26,720 nucleotides of DNA from a virus (Duplodnaviria; Heunggongvirae; Uroviricota; Caudoviricetes), in the IMG/VR virus record IMGVR_UViG_2734482772_000016, positions 1-26,720 of that record; one strand, written 5' to 3'. The translations under genes and the position numbers were made by a program. Every line of letters begins with the position of its first letter. Positions within the stretch are counted from its first letter, which is position 1. Below are positions 6,143-26,720 of the stretch, one piece after another. The notes beneath the pieces are model-generated. The model was not told the DNA's origin. It saw nothing but the letters and a program-made list of their open reading frames with translations, and did no database searches.

Positions 6143-7295
6143 CGATGTTGACCTGGGTTATGCGTACACCCTGAAGCCGGAAGAAGCGATTAAGTATTTC
6201 GAAAGCAAGGGATACGTCATCGGCTTCCGCTGGCACGATGTGAAGGACATCGCACACGCCCGGGCGTTCACGGTGGCGGGCGTGCTGAAACTGGATGTTC
6301 TGAAGGATATCCGTGATGGCCTGACGGCGGCACTGGCTGACGGCGGGACGTTCCGGGAGTTTGCCGCACAACTGGAGCCGCTGCTGGAGAAAAAAGGCTG
6401 GCTGGGTAAGCGGCTGATTGTGGACGAGGACACCGGCGAACTGTACGGCAGACAACTGACGCCGCGCCGGTTGCGCACGATATTTGATACCAATATTCAG
6501 TCGTCATATAACGCCGGACGTTATCAGCAGCAGATGGCGAACGTGGCTGACCGGCCTTATTTTGAGCGCGTGGCAGTGATGGACCTTCACACCCGCCCGA
6601 AACACGCCGCCCTGAACGGTTTTACCGCCCGGGCGGATGATCCTGTCTGGGCGTTTTTATATCCCCCGGACGGTTATCACTGCCGCTGCCGTATCCGGGC
6701 GCGTTCGGCGTCGGATGTGGAGAAATATGGCCTGACGGTACAGAGCAGCGAGGGGCGACTGGTTGAGGTTGAGCAGGAATATGGCCAGCCGGGCCAGACC
6801 ATCAGAACAATGGGGCTGAAGATGCCGGACGGCTCCGTGTATACCGCCGACCCGGGCTTCGGTTTTAACCCCGGCAAAGTGGCATGGCAGCCGGAACTGG
6901 AAAAATACGATTACCGCAGCGCCCGCCAGTATGTCACCGGCACACTGACCGGGCCGGATTTTGCCCGGGGACTGGCGAACGTCAGCGAACTGGATGCGCG
7001 CCAGCGATATCCGCTGGCCATCCGTTCACCGGAACAGGTCGCCGCCACGGGCGCTGCACGGCAGACGGTAAACCTTACGGCTGACGTCATGAAGCGCCTC
7101 AGTGCAACAGACACGTCCCCGACCGCCGCCGACTATGTGCTGATGCAGCAAACCATCGAACGGGCGGAGCATGTCACGCAGGACGGTAACGCGTGGCGGT
7201 ATGCGTTACAGTCGGGCGACCGCTGGTCAGTGGCGACGGTGGGGGATGACGTGCTGACAGACTGGGTTATGCAGGACACACCGGAGGCATCATGA
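6129..7295 (+). CDS. head morphogenesis protein (Mu F/gp30-like)
   Basis: 388 aa, overlaps the portal stop; position and size match Mu F. Confidence 0.75.
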   Translation: MPTVDDVDLGYAYTLKPEEAIKYFESKGYVIGFRWHDVKDIAHARAFTVAGVLKLDVLKDIRDGLTAALADGGTFREFAAQLEPLLEKKGWLGKRLIVDEDTGELYGRQLTPRRLRTIFDTNIQSSYNAGRYQQQMANVADRPYFERVAVMDLHTRPKHAALNGFTARADDPVWAFLYPPDGYHCRCRIRARSASDVEKYGLTVQSSEGRLVEVEQEYGQPGQTIRTMGLKMPDGSVYTADPGFGFNPGKVAWQPELEKYDYRSARQYVTGTLTGPDFARGLANVSELDARQRYPLAIRSPEQVAATGAARQTVNLTADVMKRLSATDTSPTAADYVLMQQTIERAEHVTQDGNAWRYALQSGDRWSVATVGDDVLTDWVMQDTPEAS

Positions 7296-19967: not shown

Positions 19968-20318
19968 ATGGACCAGACGATTTCACCTGCAACCGGCGAC
20001 TACGAACGCCGCCGGATTTATACACTCCATAACGCGGTTTATCTGCGACTGGCGACGCCGCTTGGCAGTTACTGGGCGGATGCGTCGCTGGGGTCACGCC
20101 TGCACGAGCTGAAGCGGGAAAAAGACGTTTCCCGTGTTCATAAGCTTGCGGCGCAGTATGCCAGCCAGGCACTTCAGCCCCTGCTCGATGACGGGCGGGC
20201 AAAATCCATTACCGTTGACACAAAACCGGGGCAGCGCGGCTGGTTGTTGCTGTTAATCACCGTCACGGATAACGCGGGCACACCGCAGACGTTTGAACAC
20301 CCTGTGAGGATTATGTAA
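19968..20318 (+). CDS. Mu gp46-like baseplate protein
   Basis: 116 aa, ATGTAATG junction with the downstream J-like gene; gp46 position. Confidence 0.65.
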   Translation: MDQTISPATGDYERRRIYTLHNAVYLRLATPLGSYWADASLGSRLHELKREKDVSRVHKLAAQYASQALQPLLDDGRAKSITVDTKPGQRGWLLLLITVTDNAGTPQTFEHPVRIM

Positions 20319-21397
20319 TGCCGTTTCCTGTTCCGGGCGTTGCTGAAAACACAGAACGCCAGCTACGTGATATCGCTAACGCCCTGCCGGGCGAAACCAT
20401 CGACACCGGTGCTGACAGCGATTACCGCATTCGTGCAAATGCCGTATCCGGCGTGGCTGACGGGCTTTATATGCATCAGGGGTGGATACTCCGTCAGGTG
20501 TTTCCTGACACGGCAGACCCTGAATATCTGGAGCTGCACTGTCGTACGCGCAATGTTTTTCGTAAAAAAGCAACGGCCTCATCCGGTCCGGTAGTGATTA
20601 CCGGCGCACCCGGTAAGACGCTGCCAGCCGGTGCGGAAATTCGTGGTGAAGGTGTCAGCGTGGCCACCACAGCAGACTGCACCATCGGTGATGAAGGCAG
20701 CGCAGAGGTGACGGTAAAAAGCACCGCCACGGGTGCACAGACGAATGCATCCACGACGCAGACGGCAACGCTGGTCAGCCCGCCGGAAGGCATCAACAGC
20801 ACGGTGACGATTAAATCCCTGACCGGCGGAACGGACAGGGAAAGTGACGCCGACCTGCTGGCGCGTTATCTGGATATTCTGCGCAGGCCGCCCGCTGGCG
20901 GTAATAAATATGATTACAAACGCTGGGCGCTGGAAGTTGACGGTGTTACCTCTGCATACGTGGAGCCGTTACGTCGTGGCCCCGGTACGGTTGATGTGGT
21001 TATCACTTCTGCAAATGATTTACCGTCACAGGAGCTGATTAACGCGGTGATGGCCCATATCAATGATGTCCGCCCGGTAACGGCGAAGGATACAATGGTA
21101 CTGGCACCAACGAAAAAAAACGTTGATTTTGTTGTCAGAATAAAAACCAGTGGCCTTACTGTTGAACAGATAAAACCACAGATAACTGAAGTTATCACGG
21201 ATTTTATGAACCGACTGGAACCGGGGCAGGAATTAATTATTTCACAACTGGAAACTCAGATTTCATTAATTTCTGGCGTCAGTGATCGGCGGATTATTAT
21301 GCCGTCAGATAATGTAAAAGCAGTTGTCAATGAATCCACATGGGAGTGGCTGCGTCCGGGGAGTATTGATATCCAGCCATTTCCCAGGGAGAGTTAA
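20318..21397 (+). CDS. baseplate J-like wedge protein (Mu gp47-like)
   Basis: 359 aa; size and position match the baseplate J family. Confidence 0.75.
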   Translation: MPFPVPGVAENTERQLRDIANALPGETIDTGADSDYRIRANAVSGVADGLYMHQGWILRQVFPDTADPEYLELHCRTRNVFRKKATASSGPVVITGAPGKTLPAGAEIRGEGVSVATTADCTIGDEGSAEVTVKSTATGAQTNASTTQTATLVSPPEGINSTVTIKSLTGGTDRESDADLLARYLDILRRPPAGGNKYDYKRWALEVDGVTSAYVEPLRRGPGTVDVVITSANDLPSQELINAVMAHINDVRPVTAKDTMVLAPTKKNVDFVVRIKTSGLTVEQIKPQITEVITDFMNRLEPGQELIISQLETQISLISGVSDRRIIMPSDNVKAVVNESTWEWLRPGSIDIQPFPRES

Positions 21398-21400
21398 TAC

Positions 21401-21973
21401 ATGAATACGGTTGATTTATTCCGTGCCATGTTACCGCCGGTCAGCTATGACCCGAACGGGAAATATATTTCAGCAGAACTGAACGCAGAAGCAGCCATTA
21501 TGGATGAAGTAAAAGCGTCAGCTGCACGAGTGCTCGCATCTGTCACACCATTTTACGCATCCATGACGCTGTCTGACTGGGAACGAGTGTATGGAGTAAT
21601 ACCCCGCGATGGTGCCACACAGCAGGAACGCCGAGAAAATATTCTTATAAAGATGGCTGCAACTGGTGGGTTATCTATCCCTTATTTTAAACAACTTGCA
21701 GCCAGCCTCGGGTACACCATAACAATTACTGAACTCCATCCATTCAGAACGGGGGTAAACCGATGTGGTGATCGTCTCTATATAACAGATGCCCGATGGA
21801 TTTGGCAGGTTAATGTCACAGGAAGCAAAACGCCAGCTTACAGATTCAGAACCGGAGTATCTGCAGCCGGGGAACCGTTACTTTCCTTTGGTGCCCCTGT
21901 ACTGGAAGAAACATTTAAAGACCTTAAACCCGCTTTTACTTATTGCCATTTCACATATAAGGAGGAGCAGTAA
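21401..21973 (+). CDS. Mu gp48-like tail protein (DUF2313-type)
   Basis: 190 aa between the J-like gene and the tail fibre; ribosome-binding site GAGAG before ATG 21401. Confidence 0.6.
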   Translation: MNTVDLFRAMLPPVSYDPNGKYISAELNAEAAIMDEVKASAARVLASVTPFYASMTLSDWERVYGVIPRDGATQQERRENILIKMAATGGLSIPYFKQLAASLGYTITITELHPFRTGVNRCGDRLYITDARWIWQVNVTGSKTPAYRFRTGVSAAGEPLLSFGAPVLEETFKDLKPAFTYCHFTYKEEQ

Positions 21974-22713
21974 TGCAAAATCTGATGCCCCCGATAAATA
22001 CACCGGATCAATTGTTTCATGATGGTGACCCCACTCAGGGGATAGAAGGAACCATCGTAACTGCTGATTATTTAAATAATCAGCAGGGAGCAACCCGTGA
22101 TTTACAGCAGGAACTCCTTAATGTTCTTGGTGATGCACATATTCAACCTGACCCCAAAAAAACGGATCAGCTACTTACCGCGCTTCGTGCGTTGCTGTTA
22201 AGCCGCAAAAACCCATTTGCCGATATCAAATCGGACGGCACGGTGAAAACGGCTCTCGAAAACCTTGGATTAACCAACGCGATAATTGGTGATACCTGTA
22301 AAGAAGCAGGGTTCTACTTAGGAAGTGAACTTGCCCCTTATCTTATGCATGAGGACACTCACACAGCCATCCGCCTGGTAACGTTGGATAGCGTCCGTCG
22401 AGTAACAACCACTACTTACACTATTAATTATTACGCGAATGGCTTAATTCAGATTTTAGGTATGACCCCAACAGTAAGCTCTTTGACTCCCCAGACCATG
22501 ACATTCCCAGTGGCGTTCCCAAATGCTTGTGTTCGGTTTGCATTGCACAACCAAGAAAGTGGCGTCCCATCCTACAACATGGCGATGTATTCTAATTTAA
22601 GCAGAACGGGCGTGAAGATATGGGGAGTGGCGAACATTCTTGGCAACGGTGGAAGCCCGACGCTGGGCGCGCTACCGAACGCTGAAATCTCTTATGAAGC
22701 ATGGGGTTACTGA
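21973..22713 (+). CDS. tail fibre protein, currently expressed form (constant N-terminus joined to a variable C-terminus)
   Basis: 246 aa with an AAGGAGG ribosome-binding site; the candidate crossover site lies inside the gene at about codon 98 and is followed by a Ser/Thr/Gly/Asn-rich receptor-binding-like region. Confidence 0.7.
   Translation: MQNLMPPINTPDQLFHDGDPTQGIEGTIVTADYLNNQQGATRDLQQELLNVLGDAHIQPDPKKTDQLLTALRALLLSRKNPFADIKSDGTVKTALENLGLTNAIIGDTCKEAGFYLGSELAPYLMHEDTHTAIRLVTLDSVRRVTTTTYTINYYANGLIQILGMTPTVSSLTPQTMTFPVAFPNACVRFALHNQESGVPSYNMAMYSNLSRTGVKIWGVANILGNGGSPTLGALPNAEISYEAWGY
22254..22278 (+). repeat. candidate left crossover site (gix/hix-like) of an invertible tail-fibre segment
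   Basis: TCTCGAAAACC-TT-GGATTAACCAAC: the left half GAAAACC matches the hix/gix half-site as I remember it; it pairs in inverted orientation with 24211..24238. Confidence 0.35.
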
Positions 22714-22714
22714 T

Positions 22715-23152
22715 ATGACATTTTTCTACAGTGCAGCACATAATATTTTTGTTTCAGATATTAACAAAGAGAGCTATGAGGATGCTGGATCGTGGCCAGC
22801 AGATGCAAAAGAAGTTTCAGATGAATTATTTTATCAATATTCGCAAAATCCACCGAAAGGCAAAATTCGCTCCCATGCAGATGGCCTGCCCATCTGGGAA
22901 GATGCCCCGCCTATGACTGAAGAAGAACTTATTCTGAAAAATAAGAATGAAAAACAAATTCGTATCGATGAAGCCAATAATTATATGCACGGTAAGCAAT
23001 GGCCAGGTAAAGCGGCTATTGGTCGTCTGAAAGGTGAGGAACTGGCGCAATATAATTTGTGGCTGGATTATCTGGACGCACTGGAGCTGGTCGATACTTC
23101 CGGTGCGCCAGATATTGAATGGCCTACGCCTCCGGCAGTTCAGGCCAGATGA
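22715..23152 (+). CDS. tail fibre assembly protein (Mu U-like)
   Basis: C-terminus DTSGAPDIEWPTPP is the characteristic tail-fibre-assembly ending; start is either ATG 22715 or ATG 22694. Confidence 0.65.
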   Translation: MTFFYSAAHNIFVSDINKESYEDAGSWPADAKEVSDELFYQYSQNPPKGKIRSHADGLPIWEDAPPMTEEELILKNKNEKQIRIDEANNYMHGKQWPGKAAIGRLKGEELAQYNLWLDYLDALELVDTSGAPDIEWPTPPAVQAR

Positions 23153-23726
23153 CATCCGGCGCGGTGCTGGTATCTGTTGCCGTCACCGCGTCAATGTAAT
23201 CCAGCACAGCGTTAAGTCGGGTGGTTTCTGCCTGCGTCAGCTTCCGCCCGGCCTGCAATTTCAGTTGAATCAGACTGATGGAAGCCATTGCAGCATCAAT
23301 CAGCGACTGGCGCTGTGCTTCTGCTGCGTCTACTGCGGCACTATGCTGTGCCTCAGTATCTGTCACCCATTTCTCACCATCCCATTTATCATATGGTGTT
23401 AACGGGGCAATAGTGGTTGTATTTTCAGGGTAATCACCCAGAGCTGTGATTTCTTTCGATTCTCCTGTTTCGGTGCTATAGATGATTTCACCGCGATGGT
23501 CTGCAACATATTCCCACCCGGTTGAATCTGCATTGCGGCAGATTGCAAAACCGTCCTTGTGCTCACCCGGTGCATCAGTGCTGGAATGCGCAGGGATACC
23601 AAAACCAGCAACAAGATACTCAACTGATAACGTCATGTATTCGCGCGTTTCTCCATCATAGTTGTAGACCGTTATCTGACCATCTGTTGTTGCATATCCG
23701 TTTTCGTCTAAAATCACCTGTTCCAT
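23124..23726 (-). CDS. alternative tail fibre assembly protein (U'-like), inverted orientation
   Basis: 200 aa on the - strand ending DTSTAPDVIWPELPEA; convergent with and overlapping the + strand assembly gene by 29 bp, as in the Mu G / P1 C segments. Confidence 0.65.
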   Translation of the reverse strand: MEQVILDENGYATTDGQITVYNYDGETREYMTLSVEYLVAGFGIPAHSSTDAPGEHKDGFAICRNADSTGWEYVADHRGEIIYSTETGESKEITALGDYPENTTTIAPLTPYDKWDGEKWVTDTEAQHSAAVDAAEAQRQSLIDAAMASISLIQLKLQAGRKLTQAETTRLNAVLDYIDAVTATDTSTAPDVIWPELPEA

Positions 23727-24263
23727 TTATGCGGTCCTCACAATGTAGTTAAACGCAATGTTTCTCGGTCGATTCTCCAGGGCCGTTGGAACCTGTGATG
23801 AAGCATCAAATGTAAACCCACCATTTTTATACCCGGATGTGTTTGATGCGGCTGTAAGTACAAAATTAGTGGTATCTCCAGCCGATGACTCACTCCATCC
23901 AAATACCCCAGTCATTTGCCTTGCTGTGTTTTGATTATATGAGTTGGATACTATGCGAACTGTTCCGGAGATATTTCTTATGGCATCTTCCTGGGCGCTC
24001 ATTAGCTTGCGCCCGCTATCTACACCTCGCCCATCATCCCAACCACGAATGAATTCACCCCGCAGGTCTGGAAGGACGCCGGATGGATAAACAGCAGCCA
24101 ACGCAGGTAGTAACGTTTTATTGAAAGATGAACCGTTGCACTTCATCCATCCTGTTGGTGGTGTAGCCAGTGGATATGGTACAGGTACACCAACGGGTAA
24201 CGCTGAGCCTTCTCCCAAACCAACGTTTATGAAAATGCAGAAATAACAAGCAAATGGCATCAT
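23727..24263 (-). CDS. alternative tail fibre C-terminal variable domain (S'-like), silent in the present orientation
   Basis: 178 aa on the - strand with a Ser/Thr/Asn/Gly-rich C-terminus; its 5' end runs across the candidate right crossover site, so it would be expressed only as a fusion after inversion. Confidence 0.55.
   Translation of the reverse strand: MMPFACYFCIFINVGLGEGSALPVGVPVPYPLATPPTGWMKCNGSSFNKTLLPALAAVYPSGVLPDLRGEFIRGWDDGRGVDSGRKLMSAQEDAIRNISGTVRIVSNSYNQNTARQMTGVFGWSESSAGDTTNFVLTAASNTSGYKNGGFTFDASSQVPTALENRPRNIAFNYIVRTA
24211..24238 (+). repeat. candidate right crossover site (gix/hix-like), inverted relative to 22254..22278
   Basis: Reverse complement reads TTTTCATAAACG-TT-GGTTTGGGAGAA; right half GGTTTG and the core resemble the hix/gix consensus; 12 of 19 positions match the left site in the alignment I made. 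Confidence 0.35.
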
Positions 24264-24289
24264 TCCTGCTTTTGTCAGGGTGATCTACT

Positions 24290-24385
24290 ATGTTTATAGG
24301 CTATGTACGCGCATCAACAAATGACCAGGACACCGATTTACAACGCAATGCGTTGAGCTGTGCAGGATATGAGCTGATTTTTTGA
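24290..24385 (+). pseudogene. truncated serine DNA invertase (Gin/Pin/Hin family) N-terminal remnant
   Basis: MFIGYVRASTNDQDTDLQRNALSCAGYELIF, then a stop: close to the Gin/Pin N-terminus (xLIGYVRVSTNDQxTxLQRNAL, catalytic Ser retained). Removing one T from the T6 run at 24378..24383 gives FEGKSSA, resembling Gin FEDKLSG, then another stop. No sequence encoding the conserved WKLDRLGRS or helix-turn-helix region follows. Confidence 0.6.
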
Positions 24386-24578
24386 GGGTAAATCATCAGC
24401 ATGAGACTAATAATTTAGCGTCCAATTCTGGGCTTTTGGGTTGCGCGCTCTCCGCCCAGAATTGTTCGCCAATTAGCCCAGAAAAAAACGCGAAGTTACA
24501 CATGAATCAATTCCTTCTGCTTTTAATATGGTTTATCTGGTCACTGCACCAGTTCCGTTTTAATTTTTTGCACCTGAC

Positions 24579-26720
24579 TCAAAATTGCCGCATATCCGGC
24601 ATTCCGGGGGGTAAATCTTTCGGCACAGGCGCATCCGGTACAGGTTGTGTGGCACCACAGTTCCAGTTAATCACTGGCGCATCACCGTTCACATCCGACT
24701 CCCCTTCCAGATGAATGTGCGTACCATTGAGAAATATGCTTCCGTCCTTCGTCAGCACCAGCCTTGCCTTACCACAGCAGAGTTCAAGATGCTCACCGGC
24801 AGAATAAACTGCTGTTTGTCCGGTGTTTTCCTTCATTGTCTTGCCCACCGAGAAGGTGACGTTATTCCCCACATTGACGCTGTAGCCCATTCCCACCATC
24901 AGTGATTTATGCAGCCCTACCTGTGAGGACTGCAACAACGCCACCGAGGTATTCATAATGCCGCCTACCGTCGTCTGGTAAGCCACACCCACCGTCAGCG
25001 CACGAATGATCCCCACCTTTTCAACCTGGTTTGATCCCACTTTGATAATCTGGTTACTGCCCACCGTTTCCACCTGGTTGACACCAACCGTCTGTATCTG
25101 ATTAACGCCAATGTTCTGGATCTGGTTATTGGTAACGGTGATCGCCTGGTTGTTACCTATTTTTTCGGCATGGTTGTTTATCACATCAGTGGTGCGGTTA
25201 TTCAGCACCTCGGTGTTCATGTTCTTCTGCGCGTGGATGTAGACCTGTTCTTTCCCTGTCGCATCGTCAAACTTCAGTTCATTAAACCCGCTGCCCTTAT
25301 AGGTTTTCGAGCGGATCGTCATCTGCGTCTTCGTCCCCGGCAGGCTGCCGGGGGTGCGGTTTTCCTGGTGGTAGGTACGCCCCATAATGATCGGCTGGTC
25401 CGGATCGCCGTTGAGGAAGTCCACAATGACCTCCTGACCCACACGCGGTATCGCCAGGTTACCAAAGCCGGTGCCTGCCCACGCCTGTGCCACACGGATC
25501 CAGCATGAACTTTCCTGGTTTGACGGGTTATAGCGGTCCCAGTTAAATTTCACCCGCACGCGGCCATGTTCATCACAGAAGATTTCCTCGCCTGCCGGTC
25601 CCGTCACGACGGCGCTCTGCGGGCCGTCCACCAGCGGTTTCAGCAACGGCTGTGGCCGCCATGTCCGGTCTGCCGGGATTACCGCAAAGTGGTTATCCAG
25701 CGTGGTGCCTGAACCCCTGCGTCCCGGTACCGCCTGCGGCTGTTCGCCGTGAAGATCGCTCGCCACCACCTGCCATTCCCGGTTCAGGTTCGCCTGCGGA
25801 TGCCCCGTCAGCACAATTCGCCGTCCCGGCCATATCTCCGGCGAACGGCTTGTTCCGCGCGCCACTTCTGCGTTGTTGCGCCAGCCATCCATCTGCCAGC
25901 GGGCAAAGTTCTGCCCGTGGGCACCCTTGAAACGTCCGGGGTAGTCATACACTTCATACTGTGTGCGCTGGTAATCCTGGTACTGGCCTTCCTGATCAAA
26001 ACGCCCTGCCCAGCCGGGTCGTTTAAAGGTGTAGTCTTTGGTCACCACGGAAGAAGGGCGGATTTGTGCGCTGTAGCGAAACTGGCTGATGCAGAGGGTG
26101 CTCACCTCGGTACGGGTGTTCGGATTCCAGGGGATCTCAAAGGACTCCGGCAGATAACGCACGGTATCGCACAGGACCAGGCTCTGGTCGGTACTTTTTT
26201 GCGCGTGCTCCTCATAAAAGAAGATGCCTTCCTCCGCCGCCATCCGGCACAGGAAATCGTAATCAGTCTCACCGTACTGGACACAAAACTCACGGGAAGG
26301 ATGTGGCTCGCTGAACAGCGGGCTCCACTCGGTCACCCCGTTTTCCTGCAATATCGTGCCGAGGATGCTTTCGATGTCCTCATTCTGGAAGATACGGAAG
26401 TTCTGGCGCAGCCCTGTGCGCCACAGCGGTGGGCACACCTTCATGCTGTACAGCATCTGGTTTTTGTCGTTCTCCCCCAGTTCAAACCAGGTCACCATAC
26501 CTTTCACCCGGCGCTGTACGTCATCGCCCTGCCATATCGTCAGGTAGGCCATTTTGTCGAGGATCTGCTGGAATTCAAGGGAGAGAAACTGCTGGCTGAC
26601 CAGAGAGAGATCGAGGGAAAAAAGCGAAGAGAGTGACTGGTTCAGATGAAAGGAGACCACCGCAAAAGCATCCGGTGGCAGGCCGTCCACTTCCAGCGTG
26701 AAACGTAATCCGGTTGACAT
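24579..26720 (-). CDS. vgrG: type VI secretion system tip/spike protein VgrG, no C-terminal effector extension
   Basis: 713 aa with a gp27-like N-terminal region, an OB-fold-like middle and gp5-like beta-helix repeats (IGNNQAITVTNNQIQNIGVNQIQTVGVNQVETVGSNQIIKVGSNQVEKVG); ends shortly after the repeats. Confidence 0.9.
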   Translation of the reverse strand: MSTGLRFTLEVDGLPPDAFAVVSFHLNQSLSSLFSLDLSLVSQQFLSLEFQQILDKMAYLTIWQGDDVQRRVKGMVTWFELGENDKNQMLYSMKVCPPLWRTGLRQNFRIFQNEDIESILGTILQENGVTEWSPLFSEPHPSREFCVQYGETDYDFLCRMAAEEGIFFYEEHAQKSTDQSLVLCDTVRYLPESFEIPWNPNTRTEVSTLCISQFRYSAQIRPSSVVTKDYTFKRPGWAGRFDQEGQYQDYQRTQYEVYDYPGRFKGAHGQNFARWQMDGWRNNAEVARGTSRSPEIWPGRRIVLTGHPQANLNREWQVVASDLHGEQPQAVPGRRGSGTTLDNHFAVIPADRTWRPQPLLKPLVDGPQSAVVTGPAGEEIFCDEHGRVRVKFNWDRYNPSNQESSCWIRVAQAWAGTGFGNLAIPRVGQEVIVDFLNGDPDQPIIMGRTYHQENRTPGSLPGTKTQMTIRSKTYKGSGFNELKFDDATGKEQVYIHAQKNMNTEVLNNRTTDVINNHAEKIGNNQAITVTNNQIQNIGVNQIQTVGVNQVETVGSNQIIKVGSNQVEKVGIIRALTVGVAYQTTVGGIMNTSVALLQSSQVGLHKSLMVGMGYSVNVGNNVTFSVGKTMKENTGQTAVYSAGEHLELCCGKARLVLTKDGSIFLNGTHIHLEGESDVNGDAPVINWNCGATQPVPDAPVPKDLPPGMPDMRQF

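Follow-up and report, generated by a model that had tools for sequence, protein, structure and literature searches.

Textbook invertible fibre segments belong to phages that have their own invertase. The locus described here raises the question of whether such a segment can still switch when the invertase gene beside it is a stub of 31 codons. It lies in a window of 26,720 nucleotides, by which we mean the whole stretch of DNA analysed, from a virus of the Caudoviricetes (IMG/VR record IMGVR_UViG_2734482772_000016). The initial annotation recognised the segment and took it to be probably locked because its invertase is truncated. We think it likely that the locus is instead an orphan e14-type fibre switch of a Mu-like prophage, driven in trans. 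The copy in the window carries a hybrid left site.

Fibre module and crossover sites

The module begins with a tail fibre ORF of 246 aa (21973-22713, + strand; Pfam Gp53-like_C). Its constant N-terminus (21973..22266, +), which has PHROG tail-fibre N-terminal matches, ends at a crossover core; it is 97% identical to that of all sister prophages as far as 22271 and is also common to two relatives with a long non-invertible fibre (L018 and L019). The variable C-terminus that is now expressed is gp53-like (22267..22713, +; Pfam PF21882, 2.6e-8) and is followed by its assembly gene (22715..23152, +; Pfam Caudo_TAP, 1.3e-27; PHROG 188, 3e-53). The silent cassette on the − strand consists of a fibre C-terminus of the tail collar type (23727..24221; Pfam Collar, 3.6e-13; PHROG 523, 3e-69) and a second assembly gene (23124..23726; Pfam Caudo_TAP, 1.1e-32; PHROG 105, 1.9e-92), which converges on the first with an overlap of 29 nt. 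The silent C-terminus has no start of its own, and the extension of its ORF to 24263 is read-through. When the segment was inverted in silico at the cores, the constant part joined the − strand exon in frame (TALENLGLGEGSALPVG; 262 aa, no stop). The ORFs, the profile matches and this in-frame fusion bear out the layout that had been proposed from the letters of the sequence, namely a constant N-terminus followed by two convergent C-termini with assembly genes, as in G and P segments, and the Caudo_TAP and Collar matches agree with the assignment of the − strand ORFs to fibre and assembly functions. The description as a classic G segment holds for the layout but not for the affinity, as the module is nearer to the P segment of e14 than to the G segment of Mu.

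The left crossover site occupies 22253..22278 (CTCTCGAAAACC TT GGATTAACCAAC; core 22265-66) and the right site 24210..24235 (TTCTCCCAAACC AA CGTTTATGAAAA; core 24222-23), so that the initial annotation had placed both cores accurately. The right site is identical at 26/26 nt to the right site of e14 in E. coli K-12 and includes CCTTCTCCCAAACCAA, the repeat at which PinQ and PinE invert e14 (PMC12529663). The outer half and core of the left site are canonical, with a 14/14 match to e14. The 12-mers of the sites by themselves occur at the frequency expected by chance; the sites are nevertheless not chance matches, since these 26/26 and 14/14 agreements with e14 are correctly placed and in frame.

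In contrast, the inner half of the left site is non-canonical. GGATTAACCAAC matches the canonical GGTTTGGGAGAA at 5/12 positions and lacks the T4-C5 present in every other half-site compared; the incomplete identity between the two sites had thus been noted correctly. The inner half GGTTTGGGAGAA is found in e14 and in every sister prophage, whereas GGATTAACCAAC is found only in the window and in four other loci (L013, L020, L021 and L025). The expressed cassette is 98.6% identical to the cassette of an e14-like element (L013) and 95% identical to a cassette that is not part of an invertible segment (L021). GGATTAACCAAC also stands behind non-site outer sequences in non-invertible fibres, indicating a coding role and not that of a recombination half-site.

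A truncated invertase gene at the end of a mobile prophage

The stub (24290..24385, +) comprises 31 codons and a TGA, encodes MFIGYVRASTNDQDTDLQRNALSCAGYELIF, and contains a T6 run at 24378-24383. Its product is 84% identical to residues 1-31 of Pin (tblastn) and 77% identical to those of Gin, and it matches the PHROG DNA invertase family at 8.5e-18. Serine recombinases of the resolvase/invertase type consist of a catalytic domain of about 140 aa and a C-terminal helix-turn-helix. The 31-aa product has the catalytic-serine motif YVRAST and nothing further of such an enzyme, and tblastn with Pin and Gin queries found no other part of an invertase elsewhere in the window at E<0.9. The adjacent invertase is therefore represented by residues 1-31 only, as had been stated from the ORF list. 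The spacer between the right site and the stub (24236..24289, +) is homologous to the region upstream of pinE in an alignment with e14 and Mu, with 2-4 differences per 54 nt among relatives. Beyond the stop codon, a last, out-of-frame remnant of invertase homology extends over 24386..24400 (+), and all phage invertase genes match only as far as 24399-24400.

The T6 run and the TGA are unchanged in 20 complete genomes, which excludes both a sequencing error and a lesion peculiar to one strain. They recur in 10 other aligned loci, two of which are about 10% divergent, and dropping one T would add only 6 codons. The suggestion that resequencing of the T6 run might restore an intact gene was rejected on these grounds.

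The stub lies close to the right end of the prophage. Invertase homology ceases at about 24400, some 5 nt ahead of a conserved 95-nt Mu-type end (24406..24500) that contains three TTCTGGGC repeats and closes with the last phage base at 24500 (...GTTACA), 115 nt past the stop codon of the stub. In an alignment of 10 loci, the sequences diverge exactly after 24500 into host DNA that differs in each. The window matches E. coli host DNA at 100% from 24501 onward; the host vgrG gene for the type VI secretion spike (24579..26720, −; Pfam Phage_GPD and Gp5_trimer_C), 100% identical to E. coli vgrG-rhs loci, lies outside the element and marks the insertion site of the window's prophage, downstream of vgrG. 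The 95-nt end also terminates relatives with other fibre modules.

Of 5,426 complete E. coli genomes, 20 carry an identical stub and end, at 11 or more different insertion sites, whose neighbours include mhpT, melA, scpC, RHS, yeiP, pta, eutC, hokB, IS4 and pphA. The copy in strain E2348/69 is a complete 35.7-kb prophage with a Mu transposase, a MuB-like ATPase, Mor and structural genes, in which the stub is the sole gene flagged as pseudo. The window has the Mu-type profiles Pfam Phage_Mu_Gp48 and DUF1804 and does not include the early region. The structural genes and the common end at many sites, together with MuA and MuB as seen in the E2348/69 copy, identify a Mu-like transposable phage. 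A Mu-like 5-bp target duplication was not found, and two relatives have direct repeats of 4 nt (CACT and CTGA) if TG...CA ends are assumed; short duplications of this kind also fit transposition. The stub thus belongs to the conserved right end of a mobile Mu-like prophage lineage and is not a product of local decay.

Among sequenced phages, no intact relative was found: matches stop at 24400, and there was no match to the phage body at or above about 85% identity. L018 and L019 were considered as the ancestral state with an intact invertase and rejected, having a single non-invertible fibre of 792 aa, no site and no stub.

Inversion in sister prophages and a probable source of the invertase

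Sister prophages with the same stub occur in both orientations. Two clonal isolates (L001 and L011) carry the prophage at the same site (yeiP) with flanks that are 100% identical and differ by a block of 1,874 bp that is exactly inverted, the exchange being limited to the core and the shared inner half-site. In a second strain pair with another cassette pair (L003 and L008), a block of 1,921 bp is inverted at 99.7% identity. The repeat shared at the inversion junctions is 15-19 nt long.

These comparisons involve assembled genomes only, and with so short a repeat one might ascribe the orientation differences to RecA-dependent recombination at short inverted repeats or to choices made during assembly. 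We regard this as very improbable. Efficient homologous recombination needs more than 15 nt, in two independent cassette pairs the breakpoints map precisely to the core and inner half of canonical pix sites, the remainder of the sequence is 99.7-100% identical, and an assembler yields either orientation only with read support.

The precise inversion of 1,874 bp between the clonal yeiP isolates means that the stub does not freeze the switch, contrary to the initial annotation. For the lineage, it contradicts the view that the invertase decayed in the window's prophage, that the host-range switch was frozen thereby and that the module is a dead remnant. Such a view can point to a real stub with no remainder in the window and to the observation that pinE mutants of e14 are locked (PMC12529663). 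It can also point to the single orientation in four E2348/69 assemblies, which persists despite three pin-like places on that chromosome; as all four have the same orientation throughout, this comparison is uninformative about inversion within the strain. It must contend, however, with the same stub in 20 genomes, at many insertion sites and in prophages that are otherwise intact, and with pin-like loci on all carrier chromosomes. We therefore consider a switch frozen by the stub unlikely.

Since flipping has occurred in sister prophages despite this stub, the invertase for the switch is probably borrowed from other resident prophages. Each carrier chromosome has 1-7 additional pin-like loci, counted solely as the difference in matching places between a query that includes the 3' 441 nt of pinE and one that omits it, so that some could be pseudogenes; there are three such places in each of the clonal isolates and one in tcmA_3. 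The possibility of an invertase acting in trans, which had been left open at the outset, accordingly holds. PinQ, from the Qin prophage, acts in trans on the P segment of e14 and inverts it at the repeats TTGGTTTGGGAGAAGG and CCTTCTCCCAAACCAA (Kirigo et al., NAR 2025, PMC12529663). By this precedent and the presence of the pin-like loci, resident Pin-family invertases probably do the flipping.

State of the window's copy

Whether the window's own copy can invert depends on its left site. One explanation is that a cassette exchange placed the C-terminus of a non-invertible fibre (GLTNAIIG...) behind the core, leaving one good left half-site, and that the copy is locked by this site. We judge this to be finely balanced. 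The divergence of GGATTAACCAAC from the other half-sites and its occurrence in non-invertible fibres point in that direction, and removal of one repeat blocks inversion of e14 (PMC12529663). The outer half and core are intact, however, and invertase dimers can use imperfect sites. Furthermore, two different phages (L020 and L025) have the same hybrid site beside an intact invertase gene, so the site may still be functional.

We found no flipped junction (0 occurrences) of the window's cassette in the 5,426 E. coli genomes or in IMG/VR, GTDB representatives or JGI metagenomes. The unflipped junction was present in about 8 genomes plus 3 and 15 contigs, most of the metagenome contigs that carry it being too short to judge whether the module is invertible. 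The absence of flipped copies is weak evidence, because only about five examples of the cassette stand in a demonstrably invertible context. The hybrid left site may be impaired, and the window's copy may be slow or locked owing to this site and not to the stub.

Putative enhancer within the stub

The invertase family requires a Fis-dependent enhancer in cis. The Hin enhancer is a 65-bp element with a Fis site at each end, located in the part of the gene that encodes the N-terminus, at about 100 bp from hix, with ATTTA and TAATG between the Fis sites (PMC3798978, PMC2724282). By homology of position, a 65-bp Fis-dependent recombinational enhancer is predicted at 24311..24375, within the stub. 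This stretch includes GATTTACAACGCAATGCG at 24335-24352 and, distally, a match to the Fis consensus, GTGCAGGATATGAGC, at 24360-24374; pinE, gin and L020 have this motif at the equivalent position. The centre of the proximal Fis site (24311-24325) would lie about 95 bp from the core of the right site; a Fis motif scan gave no fit to the degenerate consensus there. The motif occurs by chance 4.2 times per kb, and only its conserved position is informative.

The region 24210-24400 has no indels across the lineage. Counts of substitutions per sub-region revealed no excess conservation of the enhancer: L015 differs at 10/65 positions in the enhancer versus 3/54 and 7/98 in the flanks. As the enhancer is no more conserved than its flanks, selection on it leaves no mark in these counts, and it may have been retained simply because the deletion happened to end where it did. 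Its position suggests that the stub may act as an enhancer.

Discussion

We propose that a Mu-like prophage of E. coli bears at its right end an e14-type, P-segment-like invertible cassette that would retain only its cis-acting parts, namely two crossover sites and a Fis-dependent enhancer lying within codons 1-31 of a truncated pin-like gene. The enzyme would be supplied in trans by Pin-family invertases of co-resident prophages, and fibre switching in the lineage would thus hinge on the lysogen's other prophages. In the window, the expressed cassette would have been replaced, the newcomer carrying a non-canonical inner half-site into the left site, and inversion of this copy is probably poor or absent. 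A further-reaching version is that the stub has been kept as a cis Fis enhancer, that the invertase gene was shed with switching made obligatorily dependent on co-resident prophages, so that one phage would rely on another for its choice of receptor, and that unrelated phages have exchanged the whole segment, with the crossover sites as the exact breakpoints; we put this forward tentatively, with the balance slightly against it.

The orphan switch driven in trans would represent a mobile phage lineage with only sites and a likely enhancer that yet flips in nature. If this is true, the fibre type of a lysogen, and hence the host range of its progeny, would be set by other prophages in the cell, and annotation pipelines would mis-score such modules as dead. 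A truncated recombinase gene beside inverted sites does not by itself imply a frozen switch, and the quality of the sites counts at least equally.

Among known systems, the P segment of e14 in E. coli K-12 (ymfQ-stfP-tfaP / tfaE-stfE-pinE) resembles the window in gene order after the YmfQ/Gp48 baseplate gene, in its short fibre of about 210-250 aa, and in its crossover sites, apart from the left inner half. The two are 84% identical in DNA over the silent exon and onward to codon 31 of pin. Whereas e14 resides at icd, the module in the window belongs to a Mu-like transposable prophage and lies at its right end; its homology to the sites and to the 5' end of pin and its ymfQ-stf-tfa order are those of the P segment, and its location is not. 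The window's pinE equivalent also loses its frame at codon 31 and breaks off at about codon 37.

Like the G segment of Mu with gin, and also the C segment of P1 with cin, the window has an invertible fibre module; as in Mu, this lies near the right end of a Mu-type phage, and the Fis motif has the same position in gin. In contrast, Mu has a full gin followed by com and mom before its end, where the window has just 115 nt; the constant part of the fibre gene has about 98 codons in the window and far more in Mu; and the window's sites are of the e14 type, unlike the gix sites of Mu.

The inversion of e14 by PinQ offers the closest functional parallel, in that another prophage's invertase would flip the fibre segment here as well, and the sister prophages carry the same repeats. 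Whereas e14 retains its own pinE, the element in the window has no invertase, and supply in trans would be obligatory. Finally, the stub retains a stretch equivalent to the Fis enhancer in the 5' end of hin at the same spacing, with the ATTTA...AATG centre of Hin; the gene around the window's stretch is dead, and by its position the stretch may have a corresponding activity.

Results

The late region of the Mu-like prophage occupies positions 1–24500 of the window. Its last structural genes are a baseplate J/gp47 gene (20318–21397) and a Gp48/YmfQ gene (21401–21973; Pfam Phage_Mu_Gp48, 2e-30), which is followed by the fibre module. The module consists of a 246-aa fibre ORF with a Gp53-like_C domain (21973–22713) and an assembly gene (22715–23152; Caudo_TAP) on the + strand, and, on the − strand, a second assembly gene (23124–23726; Caudo_TAP) and a fibre C-terminal exon without its own start (23727–24221; tail collar domain). 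The left crossover site (CTCTCGAAAACC TT GGATTAACCAAC) has its core at 22265–66 and the right site (TTCTCCCAAACC AA CGTTTATGAAAA) at 24222–23, and in-silico inversion at these cores gave an in-frame fusion of the 98 constant codons with the − strand exon. The initial annotation had described sites at these positions, this layout and a 31-codon invertase stub, and the ORFs, domain matches and tblastn searches upheld it in every detail. The 3′ ends of the convergent assembly genes share 29 nt (23124–23152), and an overlap of ~28–29 nt is also found in annotated relatives. Elsewhere in the prophage, an N6/N4 DNA methylase gene (Pfam 6.5e-23) is located at 2161–2901, directly upstream of terminase; the right end lacks com/mom, which Mu carries there.

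The stub ORF (24290–24385) stops just past a T6 run. In tblastn searches, its 31 residues matched Pin and Gin at 84% and 77% identity, respectively, and no further Pin or Gin sequence was detected in the window, confirming that the invertase is a true stub. Homology to the intact invertase genes of phages and e14 stops at 24399–24400, and the conserved Mu-type right end spans 24406–24500. Ten aligned loci from complete E. coli genomes have the same structure through base 24500 (...GAAGTTACA), past which each immediately enters different host DNA; from 24501 onward, the flank in the window matches E. coli vgrG-rhs loci at 100% identity. The stub marks the phage's edge; it is no local lesion. 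The phage collection searched contained no sequenced phage with the same right end.

The motif TTCTGGGC occurs three times in the right end, once direct (24424–24431) and twice inverted (24454–24461 and 24476–24483). Since relatives have it at their left end too, these repeats are probably transposase-binding sites. The stub (24290–24382) has its top PHROG match in family 8275; this “DNA invertase” profile spans just 51 positions, so that short fragments of invertases seem to be a recurring feature of phage genomes. A stretch of 78 nt separates the vgrG stop codon from the insertion point, which lies downstream of the gene (flank, 24501–26720). In other E. coli the same flank DNA continues directly into an RHS core/DUF6531 gene, so that the insertion splits the type VI spike gene from its Rhs effector.

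The initial annotation had further proposed that the stub probably locks the switch. This was not borne out, as stub-bearing sister prophages occur in both orientations. Two Swiss strains, 20KM0223N from a dog and MEI148-20EC from soil, have the prophage at one shared position beside yeiP, and their flanks (1.6 kb and 3.8 kb on the two sides) match at 100% identity. The segment between their sites (1,874 bp) is exactly inverted, likewise at 100% identity, the exchange is limited to the core and the shared inner half-site, and the two assembly genes are annotated on swapped strands. In a second pair with a different cassette pair, EPEC E2348/69 and tcmA_3, a 1,921-bp block is inverted at 99.7% identity. 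These two strain pairs demonstrate that prophages with this very stub as their invertase have undergone site-specific inversion.

The window copy differs from its sisters at the left site. The left inner half is GGTTTGGGAGAA in e14 and all sister prophages and GGATTAACCAAC in the window; the two match at 5/12 positions, and GGATTAACCAAC lacks the T-C present in every other collected half-site. It forms the beginning of the expressed cassette (GLTNAIIG...), which is 98.6% identical to a cassette in an e14-like element and 95% identical to one in a prophage without an invertible module. In metagenome contigs, GGATTAACCAAC is preceded by unrelated non-site sequences, which identifies it as ordinary coding sequence, not as a half-site. 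By our estimate, the window copy is about as likely to be locked or very slow as not. Besides the divergent inner half, this reading is favored by the junction counts: the unflipped junction of this cassette was found in ~8 of the 5,426 complete E. coli genomes, 3 IMG/VR viral contigs and 15 JGI metagenome contigs, and the flipped junction in none of these collections nor among GTDB species representatives. However, only ~5 of the unflipped cases lie in a demonstrably invertible context, and two of the unflipped cases (L020 and L025) have intact invertase genes alongside; both points make a lock less certain. If the window copy is locked, the cause is the left site, not the stub.

Three ~42-kb contigs (L023, L024 and L026) each end 34–94 nt past the left crossover site; the assemblies could have broken there because of mixed orientations or repeated cassettes.

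Pin/Gin/Hin-type invertases require an enhancer that is bound by Fis and located in cis. In Hin, this element covers 65 bp of the N-terminal coding region at ~100 bp from the nearest site; a Fis site stands at either end, and ATTTA and TAATG lie in the interval (PMC3798978, PMC2724282). The stub contains GATTTACAACGCAATGCG at 24335–24352, which would place the equivalent 65-bp enhancer at ~24311–24375, wholly within the stub, with the inferred proximal centre ~95 bp from the right core. A stretch at 24360–24374 fits the degenerate Fis consensus (G, Y-R, Y-R, C over 15 nt; PMC7166090), as does the same position of pinE, of gin and of one further intact invertase gene. None of the 11 sequences has an indel between 24210 and 24400. 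The placement, the Fis match and the absence of indels suggest that all cis elements for inversion in trans are kept, the truncation leaving ~25 nt past them. Two findings weaken this reading: the proximal Fis site does not fit the consensus, and the enhancer stretch is no more conserved than its flanks.

Cross-complementation within the Pin/Gin/Hin-type family has long been established. In the carriers, pin-like loci were counted indirectly, by the difference between a genome search with the conserved 1.9-kb phage stretch alone and one with the same stretch plus the 3′ 441 nt of pinE. Every carrier had extra places with the pinE part, 1–7 per chromosome: three in each of the two clonal isolates (20KM0223N and MEI148-20EC), three in E2348/69 and one in tcmA_3. 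The pinE part was matched in 61%–89% of all 5,426 genomes. A 2025 study showed that PinQ from prophage Qin acts in trans on the P segment of e14, inverting it at TTGGTTTGGGAGAAGG / CCTTCTCCCAAACCAA, and reported this segment inverted in 33% of 562 E. coli genomes (PMC12529663). The same repeats are present in the sister prophages. The suggestion that an invertase could act in trans was judged right, and the interpretation in the initial annotation is supported in part.

The region from stub to phage end (24264–24500) is present at full length in 20 of the 5,426 complete E. coli genomes, at insertion sites including mhpT, melA, scpC, an RHS region, yeiP, pta, eutC, hokB, an IS4 copy and pphA. 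The E2348/69 copy is a 35.7-kb prophage with a repressor, Mu transposase, MuB-like ATPase, Mor and a full lysis and structural gene set, in which only the stub is flagged as a pseudogene. Direct repeats flank the prophage ends (TG...CA), CACT in E2348/69 and CTGA in MEI148-20EC (positions 6936 and 42671 of locus L022, 3472 of L041 and the right end of L011); these two relatives have 4 nt, whereas 5 nt is typical of Mu. Two copies, L010 and L011, are 99.97% identical at different chromosomal sites. Together, these results indicate a mobile phage lineage that has been spreading while carrying the stub. The T6 run and TGA are the same even in two prophages that are ~10% divergent in the stub-end region (L014 and L015, one with a different baseplate gene); the truncation thus dates far back and arose only once. 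Other fibre modules, either one 792-aa fibre or a DUF4376 gene, occur in relatives that share the constant fibre part and the 95-nt end; the e14-like module, clipped pin gene included, was therefore gained in one piece beside the phage end. In the sister prophages L018 (923–3301) and L019, the constant fibre part is common up to 22272 and is followed by one 792-aa non-invertible fibre, annotated in RefSeq as a partial gene and a separate gene, and the same 95-nt right end.

Discussion

Our analysis makes it likely that, in this phage lineage, the e14-type switch with its invertase stub is flipped in trans by the invertases of other prophages. The genetics of the 1980s and the PinQ work of 2025 make the trans mechanism plausible. 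If true, fibre switching would depend obligatorily on other prophages. A literature search on Mu-like prophages and truncated invertases found no description of a mobile phage lineage keeping the switch without the enzyme.

Two loci, L020 (2493–4649; a P2-like prophage) and L025 (3193–5353; an IMG/VR contig), have the whole invertible segment in common at 95% identity. Their homology stops exactly at both crossover sites despite different invertases (86% vs 58% identity to Pin), which suggests that phages trade the segment as a cassette.

The gene order of E. coli K-12 e14 is ymfQ, stfP, tfaP, then tfaE and stfE on the opposite strand, then pinE. The window is identical to e14 over 26 nt at the right site and in the outer half and core of the left site, with 84% DNA identity from the silent exon through pin codon 31. 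The G segment of Mu is a functional analogue, more distant than e14. The constituent parts are of known kinds: a P/G-type fibre switch, a Fis enhancer, cross-acting Pin-family invertases and a Mu-like prophage.
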